Source: Octopus vulgaris (Eukaryota). From it: a DNA stretch of 64,000 nt. Shown in pieces: positions 25,526 through 32,065 of this stretch. Position 1 is the stretch's first letter; every line of letters begins with the position of its first letter. Below the pieces are notes generated by a model. It did not search any database. It saw nothing but the letters and a program-made list of their open reading frames with translations, and was not told the origin of the DNA. Where the stretch lies: the NCBI GenBank assembly GCA_951406725.2, contig OX597837.1, forward strand, positions 22,940,001 to 23,004,000, read 5' to 3'. The position numbers and the translations under genes are program-made.

Positions 25526-27128
25526 AAATAATAATAATCTTTTCTACCATAGGCACAAGTCCTGGAATTTTGGGAGAGGGGATTAGTCGATTACATCAAC
25601 CCCAATGTTTAACTGGTACTTAATTTAGCGACCCTGAATGGATGAAAGGCAAAGTCGACCTCAGTGGAATTTTAACTCAGAATGTGAAGATGGACAAAAT
25701 GCTAAGCATTTTGCTTGACATGCTAATGATTCTGCCAGATCACCACCATGATCATCAGTGCTAACGAGTCTGCCAGTGCACCACCATAATAATGATAATT
25801 ATAATAATTGCTCCTGATTAAGGCAGAAGGCCAATAGTTTTGAGGGAAAAGGTGGTTAGCTGATAACATTAAGTCAAGTACTTGAATACTTTATGAAACC
25901 CAGTGGTGTGAAAATCAAAATCATCAACTTCTGAAGGATTGGAATTAAGAACATGAAGGGCTGAAAAGCCAAAGAATTTTACTGACTTAACTGTTAAATT
26001 TAAAGACAGCATCATCTGATTTATAATTGGTAAAACTGGAAAAACACAGAACCAGTTCTGTAATGATATTGGATATGTTACCTCATAGGTAAATTCTGGA
26101 AAATAGTGACACAAGAATCTGTAGATATAGTTAAAGAACAGTCTCAGAGAATTTGAAGATTTTTAGATTTTTATATGTGATTTCCAATGTCTGGTACTGT
26201 AATTCATTTACTAGTTTCAGCCATTTGACTGTGATCCTGTTGGGATATTGTTATAAAAAGCTTTTAGTTAATCATATTGACCACAGCACTTATTTTGAAG
26301 TTTGGGACTTATCAATCTCTATTTGTCAAACCACTAAGTTATAGGACATAAATATGGAGAGGTATGTTTTTGAAGCAGTGTCAACATAATGACAGAAGAC
26401 ATACAAACACATACAAATGGTGAGCCTCTACACAGTTTCTGTCAACTAATTTCATTAATTGGTGAACCAGGGGCTTAAGTAGAAAATACTTGCCCAATAA
26501 CTCCTTTCTACTATAAGCAAAAGGCCTGAAATTTAGGGGAAGTGGGGAAGTTGATTACAACCCCAGTGCATTGCTTATTTAATTGACCCCCGAATGTGAA
26601 AACAGACAAAATACCACTAAACCTTTTGTCTGGTGTGCTAACAATTCTGTCTAAATAATAATAGTAATCTTTTTTATTATAGGTAGGAGACCTGAAATTT
26701 GGGAGAGGAGGATAGTCAATTAATTTGATCTCAGTACTCACCTGGTACTTAATTTATTGATCCCAAAAGGATGAAAAGCAAAGTCGACCTTGACGAAATT
26801 TGAACTCAGAATGTAAAGATGGACAAAATGCTACTAAGCATTTTTCCCAGTGTGCTAACTGTTCTGCCAGCTCACCGCCTTAATAATAATAATAATGATC
26901 TATTTCTTTACTACCCACAAGGGGCTAAACACAGGGAGGACAAACAAGGACAGACAAACAAATTAAGTCGATTATATCGACCCCAGTGCGTAACTGGTAT
27001 TTATTTAATCGACTCCAAAAGGATGAAAGGCAAAGTCGACCTCGGCGGAATTTGAACTCAAAACGTAACGGCAGACGAAATACGGCTACGCATTTCGCCC
27101 GGCGTGCTAACGTTTCTGCCAGCTCGCC
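24835..27128 (-). mobile_element. Series of same-orientation family-B SINEs (24835-25022, 25275-25490, 25538-25748, 26500-26880, 26903-27128) among (AAT)n, (AAG)n and (ACT)n
   Basis: Repeated atcctttctact.taggcacaaggcctgaaatt...aaaggatgaaaggcaaagtcgacct. Confidence 0.8.
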
Positions 27129-27129
27129 A

Positions 27130-27420
27130 ATAGGACTGAGGTAACTCCTCCAGAAGTTATACAGAAATAAATAGAAGATTGCCATATCATGTGAAATTGG
27201 TTGAACAATATTTCGACATCTAGCTAGAAGACACGCTAGATGCTGAAATATTGTTCAACCAATTTCACATGATATGGCAATCTTCTATTTATTTCTGTAT
27301 AATTTCTAGAGGAGTTACCTTGGTCCTATATAATCTTAACAAAAAATGAAGTAGACTGACATGTAATTTTTGAACCTGTGGAAGGCACGCTAGATGCCGA
27401 AATATCGTTCAACCAATTTC

Positions 27421-27423
<3 letters not shown>
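27130..27423. mobile_element. Penelope pLTR- or retrozyme-like unit: 154-bp tandem period plus an inverted copy (95-bp arms)
   Basis: Arms 27130-27224 and 27235-27329 are near-perfect reverse complements; gaag.cacgctagatgc.gaaatat.gttcaaccaatttca occurs at 27227 and 27381. Confidence 0.65.
27370..27412 (+). ncRNA. Minimal type-I hammerhead-ribozyme-like motif (variant core)
   Basis: Stem I ttgaac/gttcaa; core CUGUGGAA; stem II ggca-cgctaga-tgcc; GAAA; palindromic stem III AUAU; predicted cleavage triplet AUC. Confidence 0.6.
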
Positions 27424-27469
<46 letters not shown>

Positions 27470-29522
27470 TAATTCTTTTATTTTATTATTAAAAGAATTA
27501 ATTATTATTATTATTATTATGTGAATAATAATAATAATAATGATAATAATAATTATAATAATAATAATAATCCTTTCTACTAAAGGTACAAAGCCTGAAA
27601 TTTTAAGGGGAGGGGCTAGTCAATTACATCGACCGCAGTGTTTCACTGATACTTAATTTATTGACCCCCAAAAGGATGGAAAGCAAAGTCGACCAAATAA
27701 TAATAATAATCACTGTATCCCAGTCAATGTGGATGTATGAGAGACGTTTCACATCTGCTGATATCTCTGTGCTTATGTGCACAGCACGTCTAAATGAGAG
27801 ACTTTCTAAGGACTAATTCCACAATATTACAGCACTCTCATAATGCATCCACATTAAGTAGGATACAGAGACTACTATTTGGTAATAAAGCTGCCTCCAT
27901 CACAAATACCTATGAGTTTATTGATTAGATTATGTTAATATTCACTTTGGGTAATCCTTTAAGTCAATCAAAAATAACAGGGACACTGTTGGCATTTGCT
28001 TTCATGCCATTTGATGTTTAAAAACTAATTTTAAAGATATTTCTTTCAAAATTCCTATTTTGTTATTCACCCATCAGTTATTTCTTGCAATAGATACATT
28101 TAAATCAAAACTTTTCTCGGACCCTTAAAATACTACTGTGAATGCCCACTTTATTATTTCGGTAGCATGGACATCCCTGCAAAATCTATTTATATGGACC
28201 CCCCCCCACCAGGGGTCATGTGGACCCCAGTTGAGAACCACTTGTCTAATCCATGCCAGCATGGAGAGCAGACATATGATGATGATAATGATGACAATGA
28301 TGATGATGGGGACGATGATGATGATGGGGACGATGATGATGATGCTTGGTATTTCAAAGATTCATAAATCAGACAAATCTGATCATTATTATTATTAGTT
28401 CGACTTTGCTTTCCATCCTTTTGGGGTCAATAAATTAAGTATCAGGGAAACACTGGGGTTGATGTAATTGACTAGCTCCCTCCCCTTAAAATTTCAGACT
28501 TTGTACCTTTATAGAAAGGATTATTATTATTATTATTATTATTATGTGAAGATCTGCACGTAGTCCTGCAAGCTATCATCAACACGATAATGTTCTTGCA
28601 CAGCCTTAGTAAGGTTTTCCCTGCTACACTCCACCAGCTGGTTGAACTGAATTAATGACACTTAGGTACCTTCACTATGAATACACTGTATAACGGCAGA
28701 ACACAATCTGTAGGTTACTCAGTAGGAACAGTCGGCAGTCTGACACCCTACCAATTCAGTAAGTCACATCTGTCTCAAATTCTAAAAAACATTTTCTAAT
28801 ATAATTATTTTTCATGTGAAATTCAAAAGAAGCTAAAAACTATTGATGTCGGTTTACATTATTGACGATTAAAATATGTATACACAATTAGAATGCTAAA
28901 ATGTGTTGATGGCAGTGAAATAAATTAACTTTTGTAATGAGGCAGGCAAAACCCCACCCCCAAAAATATCAGAATAAAAGCTATTAGTAAAAACAAAAAA
29001 AAAACTCCAACAAAACCAAATAACAAAATGTCATAATTGATGCAGTTCACAAGAGAATGAAAAGATAGTGATTAGAAAGAAAACATTATCAACATATTAA
29101 GTTGATAGTTAGAATTGCATTAATTAATAACTAACGACTACCCCTTCTCCTTTCCACCTAAATACAAATTGTAATTTCTGAATTATCTTATACCATATAA
29201 TTTTCTGATTAATAATCTACAAAAAAAAGACGTAGCCATCAGAAGTTACCTACAAAACAAATTAGCAAAGAATTTGTATTAAATTATTCAGACATTGTCA
29301 TGGCAATAGAAACGGCAAACATTCGCTGACAATCATTTCTCATATGTTGAGAATAGGTAAAAAAAAAAAAACCCAAAAAACTGAAAAAAAAACCCAAACA
29401 AAACAAAACCTAATTAAACATAAATTACATGAAATATAAGCATGTAGCACGTGTATACTACAATATATGCATATTGTCAGTAAATCATAAATCCGAAAGA
29501 GAATCATAATATATATATTATA

Positions 29523-29587
29523 TAGTATAGTGGTAAGTATCCCCGCCTGTCACGCGGGAGACCGGGGTTCGATTCCCCGCTGGGAAG
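29523..29587 (+). pseudogene. tRNA-Asp(GTC)-derived sequence lacking the 5' acceptor strand (head of a mini-SINE)
   Basis: tagtatagtggtaagtatccccgcctGTCacgcgggagaccggggttcgattccccg has intact D, anticodon and T arms; the upstream tattata cannot pair with ctgggaa. Confidence 0.85.
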
Positions 29588-31422: not shown

Positions 31423-31686
31423 GATGATGATGATGTTAGTCGAATACGGAGCAGTAATAAGAAAATGAGATGACAAAGGAATAAATGATAATCTGATTGT
31501 TTAATCCTTTTGCCATCTCATTTTCCTATACATATAAGAGAGTAAAGATAATCTGCTCAAAAGACAACTGGCAAACAGTCTTGTTTTCAGCTTGATAAAT
31601 GGCAGAATAAATTATTTTGATCAGGAAAACCTGGGTAGCTGTATTTACAAGGTTTGTAATTTTTATAAGATTATATATATATATAT

Positions 31687-32065
31687 AGGGAAAGTTTATG
31701 AAAAAAAAACAAAAGACGTAGATAGGTGGGGTACAAAACAACCATGTATTACTATAGCGCTCAGGAATAGAAAAAGTCTTTTACGTTTCGAGCCTACGCT
31801 CTTCTACAGAAAGGTACACAGAAAAACGAGGAGAGAAAAAAATGTGTGCAGTGGCCAACGATCTATCATGGCATCTGACTCGGACAAAATGGTCAGACAG
31901 GAAGAGGAATGTAGGGGAGATAACAAGGTAAAGATGATCCCCAACACAAAGGTGTGTGTGTGTATAAGAGAGTATGTATGTGCGTGTGAAAGAGGGCTGG
32001 TGGTCTGGACGTGTGTATGTATGTATGTATGTGTAGGTGTGAAGATGTGGGGATGGGTGTGTGAT
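31687..32065 (-). mobile_element. Penelope-like element terminal fragment between (TA)n tracts
   Basis: Contains the PLE-type terminal motif ctgtagaagagcgtaggctcgaaacgt. Confidence 0.55.
31778..31813 (-). ncRNA. Minimal hammerhead-ribozyme-like motif (variant core)
   Basis: Minus strand: cttt-CUGUAGAA-gagc(gtag)gctc-GAAA-cgt-a-aaag; stem I cttt/aaag, palindromic stem III ACGU, triplet GUA. Confidence 0.6.

Follow-up and report, generated by a model that had tools for sequence, protein, structure and literature searches.

Two motifs in the window, the whole 64,000-nucleotide stretch of Octopus vulgaris DNA that was analysed (G000:C24:22940001-23004000), belong to retroelement families in which the core of a minimal type I hammerhead carries U instead of A at position 6. 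U6 is the state of both families, here called A and B, and not a private mutation of single copies. Tens of thousands of retroelement copies bear the A6U core with the remaining core letters kept, and cleavage is predicted for them. The motif appears to be the minimal Penelope hammerhead type in a new U6 variant form and is treated here as a predicted ribozyme. On balance, both motifs are probably minimal type I hammerheads of U6 families for which self-cleavage is predicted to be slow and to take place only in dimers.

Two hammerhead motifs in the window

The two motifs have the following positions:

27370-27412, plus strand: motif A, the family A hammerhead (minimal type I), with U6 at 27379 and the predicted cut at 27406/27407
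31813-31778, minus strand: motif B, the family B hammerhead (minimal type I), with U6 at 31806 and the predicted cut at 31782/31781

Motif A has the stems, the core and the AUAU palindrome that the original prediction had drawn. Stem I consists of six pairs, UUGAAC/GUUCAA (27370-27375 and 27407-27412), and the core (27376-27383) reads C3 U4 G5 U6 G7 G8 A9 with an extra A at 27383. They are followed by stem II, GGCA/UGCC (four pairs, 7-nt loop), and by GAAA, the palindrome and C17. The second motif, proposed earlier with its strand unstated, is also real and lies on the minus strand. Its stem I has four pairs (CUUU/AAAG), its core is CUGUAGA with an extra A (N7 at 31805, extra A at 31802), and 3' of the core there are stem II GAGC/GCUC (four pairs, loop GUAG), GAAA, the palindrome ACGU and A17. 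The motifs have in common C3 U4 G5 U6 N7 G8 A9, the extra A, a four-pair stem II opening with G-C, GAAA, a four-letter palindrome and an NUH triplet. Outside the core no likeness between them was detectable (z 0.2), and the stems and contexts differ as completely as had been claimed.

A descriptor relaxed to CUGNNGA matched exactly these two sites on both strands of the window, and a stricter one gave two window matches versus none in 300 dinucleotide shuffles. Short AT-rich motifs may match by chance, and two other apparent U6 families turned out to be misread (see below). Given the shuffle result, the family-wide U6 and the existence of A6 relatives that share stems and flanks, however, it is scarcely credible that the motifs arose by chance resemblance or by mutations peculiar to two dead copies. 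Neither motif had an Rfam hammerhead match at E values up to 10, and the published search descriptor requires 'cuganga' (PMC4209133), so that searches with the canonical core miss the variant, as anticipated.

Both families show the hallmarks of minimal type I hammerheads of Penelope-like elements (PLEs): C3 U4 G5 N7 G8 A9 and G12 A13 A14, an extra nucleotide between 9 and 10.1, a G10.1-C11.1 pair, stems I and II of at least three pairs, and a palindromic 15.1-16.1 with an NUH triplet (AUAU-C in family A, ACGU-A/U in family B). The A6 that also defines this type is replaced by U in both families, and they were therefore filed as a variant.

Family B, a Neptune-like Penelope element

Motif B lies within one longer feature:

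31672..32063, minus strand: Neptune-like Penelope pseudo-LTR, 5'-truncated and ending in (TA)n, 87% identity to the 3' pseudo-LTR of L121

Family B consists of pseudo-LTRs of a Neptune-like Penelope element, the linker type covering Neptune or Nematis. Its copies are 5'-truncated and share an end in (TA)n, 100 nt past the predicted cut, and the longer ones run into a Penelope-type frame. In the near-full-length copy L121, an open reverse transcriptase (RT) frame of 679 aa contains RYIDD and a CX4CxxC linker. The GIY-YIG region of this copy is in another frame than the RT and is 50% identical to that of the homologue P0014; homologues of L121 carry RVT_1 and often GIY-YIG as well. The motif with U6 is present in both pseudo-LTRs of L121, 4.18 kb apart, the 5' one having C3U. 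The RT, the C-terminal GIY-YIG, the flanking pseudo-LTRs and the linker, of which the form CX2-5CxxC is a mark of PLEs of the Neptune or Nematis type (PMC8557442), place L121 in that type, and it resembles the Neptune1_Nv row.

Family A, a short non-coding unit

The surroundings of motif A consist of three adjoining features:

27227..27429, plus strand: partial tandem of family A, with an upstream hammerhead 3' half (27227-27258), a unit of 154 bp, the complete hammerhead and a short 3' tail
27130..27224, minus strand: family A unit in inverted orientation, truncated at its 5' end, with 95-nt arms 94% complementary to 27235-27329
27423..27571, no strand assigned: (TAA)n microsatellite in which the inserted family A copy ends on its 3' side, likely the target of the insertion

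Family A is a non-coding, non-autonomous unit of 154-158 bp with one hammerhead, arranged as partial tandems and inverted truncated copies inside (TAA)n. Such inverted truncated copies and partial tandems are the architecture given for Penelope-like insertions (PMC8557442). The Penelope-like link originally suggested for the motifs is thus established for motif B by RT, GIY-YIG and pseudo-LTRs, and for motif A it is likely, judging by architecture. No autonomous partner of family A was found, nor any linked PLE frame at the loci examined. No likeness was present between the flanks of families A and B, and the two are unrelated. Family A looks like a single subfamily, and it therefore offers no covariation test.

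At 12 of 44 sites, family A units lay in or near the tail of an RLE-type non-LTR element, within 1.5 kb of its 3' UTR. The possibility that family A is itself this 3' UTR was rejected: a microsatellite lies between the two, the unit can point either way, and behind one of these elements there is no unit. The intervening microsatellite and the variable orientation led us to read the two as sharing a target. The RLE-type element is a young retrotransposon (L128:3423-6008, L129, L130) that ends in (TAA)n and is presumably R4/Dong/HERO-like.

Satellite arrays with a 137-bp period also derive from family A (G000:C1:206287436-206289256 and 206309919-206313518; L141, L157). In these long arrays the motif is broken, stem I and part of the core being deleted and GAAA changed to GGAA. 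Around the family A insertion in the window, several diverged copies of a repeat of about 250 bp are nested in (TAA)n (26502-27128, 27571-27700, 28380-28500). Further downstream, at 29523-29579 on the plus strand, there is a tRNA-like Rfam match of 41 bits with no ARAGORN call, probably the head of a tRNA-derived SINE.

With metazoan non-LTR retrozymes, as far as the accessible parts of PMC7229834 and 10.64898/2026.07.22.740005 describe them, family A shares the non-coding unit with one hammerhead and the occurrence as monomers, partial dimers and arrays. It differs from them in its U6, its inverted truncated copies and its long arrays with a broken motif, and in having a minimal hammerhead, whereas that of retrozymes is of the canonical type I and has a stem III. 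Retrozymes are also marked by tandem units 150-450 bp long, each with one hammerhead; family A has partial dimers of 154-158 bp, and the motif is broken in its long 137-bp arrays.

Position 6 within families and across the genome

Within both families U6 strongly prevailed in the 2.8-Gb genome. In family A, a search on the exact flanks with the core left open gave U6 in all 31 copies, and a looser pattern, counted by eye, gave U in 83, A in 3 and C in 2 of 88. In family B, a query upstream of the motif retrieved 29 copies, all with U6, and among the 492 matches to a core-open pattern, 98 of the first 100 had U6, again by eye. A wider core-open pattern had 22,034 matches versus none in the reversed control, and among the first 62 of these, 57 had U6, three A and two C. 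The original prediction had named A6 family consensuses as the outcome that would make the two motifs private mutations. Both families carry U6, and the counts (31/31 in family A, 57/62 in family B) bear out the proposal of a lineage-specific variant rather than random decay.

A stem-blind pattern run across the genome had 30,198 matches with U6 (reversed control 682), 12,652 with A6 (control 403) and 2,008 with C6 or G6 (control 227). Among the C6 and G6 matches listed, most derive by point mutation from the U6 or A6 families, which indicates that position 6 is either A or U and not free. Pairing was not enforced by this pattern, an extra nucleotide was required, and stem II with its loop was limited to 10-16 letters; A6 motifs with longer stems are missed by it, and the U6 to A6 ratio of 2.4 to 1 therefore holds only within the pattern. 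Among the U6 matches, no more than 1,131 (control 220) had a stem II that did not open with GA, so that a single clade dominates, supplying about 96% of the U6 matches.

The notion of two contexts thus stood in so far as two separate lineages carry U6, but their contributions are very unequal, and the other apparent U6 families were misread. The CUGUGGAG-GGU family is actually an A6 hammerhead whose CUG sits in a longer stem II. In the CUGUUGAG-GUAG family, the U6 reading leaves no consistent stem I, and CUGAUGA lies upstream. With both candidates removed, two lineages were left.

Two further groups of copies were noted. L313, L321-L330, L338 and L339 form an A6 hammerhead family with long and short stem II forms; a deletion between two repeats that contain CUG apparently relates one form to the other. 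In a small family of repeats (L317, L318 and L331-L335), CUGAUGA lies upstream of a stem and GAAACGUA, at a distance of about 40 nt, and this repeat may be a split-core hammerhead.

Constraint on the core and origin of U6

Variation among the 62 family B copies was concentrated at two positions of the motif. N7 was U in 25, A in 14, C in 12 and G in 11 copies and followed the subfamilies, requiring 12 changes on a tree of the flanks alone versus a mean of 32 after shuffling (0 of 200 shuffles as low). H17 was A in 49, U in 12 and G in one copy, with about five changes on the flank tree. Positions 3, 4, 5, 8, 9, 12, 13, 14, 15.1 and 16.1 had the majority base in 59-62 of the 62 copies, the changes being confined to 0-3 scattered copies per position. 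Mean conservation of the flank columns was 0.71 on the 5' side and 0.85 on the 3' side, and 53 of 122 columns reached 0.9. The copies had been picked by stem II and stem I, and the columns of these stems are therefore uninformative. As far as these alignments go, the core variation is the pattern expected for a hammerhead under selection in master elements.

This pattern also bears on a founder effect, by which a master with a decayed and dispensable hammerhead was amplified and its motif is now unselected. Naiad elements thrive without canonical hammerheads (PMC8557442), the U6 matches come mostly from one clade, for which a single origin is compatible with the tree test given below, and the motif is broken in the long tandem arrays of family A. 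Since U6 arose, however, there have been about 12 changes at position 7 and about five at position 17, while the rest of the core has stayed nearly constant and the flanks have diverged. This contrast between core and flanks largely refutes a founder effect, which we regard as improbable.

The motif is covered by a pile-up of contigs from four runs with three organism labels, and the rows listed, beside which there are 13 further ones, vary inside the motif only at positions 7 and 17; the kind of run is uncertain, and the contigs show neither ends nor strand. No compensatory change of stem II was seen inside the U6 clade. Two copies of one U6 subfamily (L179, L180) have a U-U mismatch in stem II and a UUCG loop, and another member of the clade, L319, has a poorly pairing stem II.

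A6 families with homologous pseudo-LTR flanks occur in the same genome. A6 relatives with the same stems as U6 copies differ from them only at position 6, or at 6 and 7 (L181-L183), and in more distant A6 families the outer pair of stem I is changed from C-G to G-C. In a tree of 42 hand-picked motifs, constructed with positions 6 and 7 masked and with a midpoint root only, 27 U6 and four A6 rows were separated from 11 A6 rows by a fully supported branch. Position 6 required three changes on this tree, two of them forced by strong branches, yet the AU test did not reject monophyly of U6 (p 0.277). The tree suggests that clade B acquired U6 either a single time, perhaps followed by a reversion, or repeatedly. 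The A6 relatives whose flanks are homologous to those of family B show no flank likeness to family A; U6 therefore likely arose at least twice, family A being the putative second origin.

Folding, copy ends and the proposed cleavage

Folding of the bare motifs predicted stems I and II, stem I of motif B only weakly, and the hammerhead fold was not predicted for motif B with 40-nt flanks. In the monomer of both motifs U6 was predicted to pair with the invariant A15.1, as part of a three-pair helix U4-G5-U6/A15.1-Y-R. The median probability of the G5:15.2 pair was 0.55 in 26 U6 motifs versus 0.01 in 22 A6 motifs, the rows being related to each other. Since the rows are related and the pair is dictated by the letters, the trapping of A15.1 by U6 is offered as a hypothesis and not as evidence of selection.

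In the proposed mechanism, U4-G5-U6 of a lone copy would pair with A15.1-Y-R and hide the palindrome, and the monomer would be kept off. Two copies in one transcript would pair through the ACGU or AUAU palindrome, forming stem III, and the paired dimer would cut after position 17. The cut may free or circularise the element RNA, as has been proposed for other Penelope hammerheads. Nearest-neighbour folding gave -13.4 for the active dimer versus -25.2 for other dimers, and -10.9 versus -20.6 kcal/mol. The model thus favours other dimers over the active one, and help by proteins may be needed.

The ends of genomic copies were compared with the predicted cut. With a query wholly 3' of the cut, none of 29 family B copies began at the cut and 16 of them began 85-96 nt upstream of it, an edge that is likely the transcription start. 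In an A6 control family, likewise 0 of 29 copies started at the cut, and copy ends therefore neither show nor exclude cleavage. No pile-up of family A copy ends was seen at the predicted cut. In L242-L270 (family B) and L272-L300 (the A6 relative), most copies are fragments of about 200 nt that contain only the pseudo-LTR and have a fixed 3' end; their shared 5' edge precedes the cut by up to 96 nt in the U6 family and by about 100-104 nt in the A6 family. These fragments are likely SINE-like RNAs from an internal promoter, copied with the hammerhead intact. The idea that U6 is a trick letting short uncut copies spread was unsupported, as the A6 family has the same short intact copies.

Most family B copies thus derive from RNA intact across the cut site. 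The motif may accordingly have lost cleavage and been kept for another job, such as RT binding or a promoter or packaging signal in the pseudo-LTR, an explanation that we take as a serious possibility while judging it the less probable one. Changes of A6 slow known hammerheads (in the accessible parts of PMC9901934 and PMC3088659), the palindrome is predicted to be trapped by U6, the sequence of stem II is near-invariant in the clade with its prevailing GA opening, and functions other than cleavage are left open by PMC4209133 itself, in the text available. The variable positions 7 and 17, on the other hand, are those that hammerhead catalysis leaves free, G17 being found in a single copy of 62, and intact short copies are equally common in the A6 control.

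We tentatively put forward a further reading of the folding models, which we consider rather doubtful: U6 would be a working and convergent core, and its pair with A15.1 a safety catch, off in a lone copy and released when two copies pair through their palindromes.

Comparison with known hammerheads

Lunse, Weinberg and Breaker reportedly described in 2017 small Penelope hammerhead variants with a diminished stem III and dimer cleavage, about 150,000 variants in all. The closest known counterparts of the U6 motif are the minimal hammerheads of PLE pseudo-LTRs (Cervera and de la Pena 2014, PMC4209133). According to the accessible parts of that paper, these share the short stem I, the extra nucleotide between 9 and 10.1, G10.1-C11.1, the palindromic 15.1-16.1 without a real stem III, the NUH triplet, the location in pseudo-LTRs and the thousands of mostly solo copies. 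They differ at position 6, which is A in all 56 representatives of the Fig. S3 of that study and U here. The only core change reported for PLE minimal hammerheads in the same parts of the paper is U3-A8. Minimal Penelope hammerheads are described there as inactive alone and as cleaving weakly as dimers via the palindrome, even with A6.

A natural change at position 6 is also known from the A6C hammerhead of phage Bcep176 (Perreault et al. 2011, PMC3088659), which, in the text available, has low but detectable activity (<0.1 per min). That case is a single phage sequence with C6, whereas here U6 is fixed in a second family as well as in a retroelement clade that numbers more than 20,000 copies. 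When a type III hammerhead was subjected to deep mutagenesis, every single or double change in the CUGA turn left low activity, a C3-G8 swap excepted, as given in the accessible part of PMC9901934. A natural A6U was not found in the hammerhead literature covered, including the available parts of PMC6765202, PMC6962438, PMC6155905, PMC11014351, PMC6466107, PMC10085705 and PMC7229834.

Implications

A6 is treated as an invariant nucleotide of the hammerhead and is fixed in search descriptors, and yet the U6 form outnumbers the A6 form by about 2.4 to 1 within the pattern searched here. Between L182 and either L176 or L169, position 6 is almost the only difference, and such natural pairs make it testable whether Penelope hammerheads must cut or whether their fold serves another purpose. 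Cleavage by the U6 form, if true, would extend the known catalytic core, and its absence, if true, would mean a conserved hammerhead fold with a non-catalytic role. Should the doubtful safety-catch reading be correct, the commonest minimal hammerhead form in this genome would be invisible to CUGANGA searches, counts of animal hammerheads would be much too low, and A6 would not be invariant.
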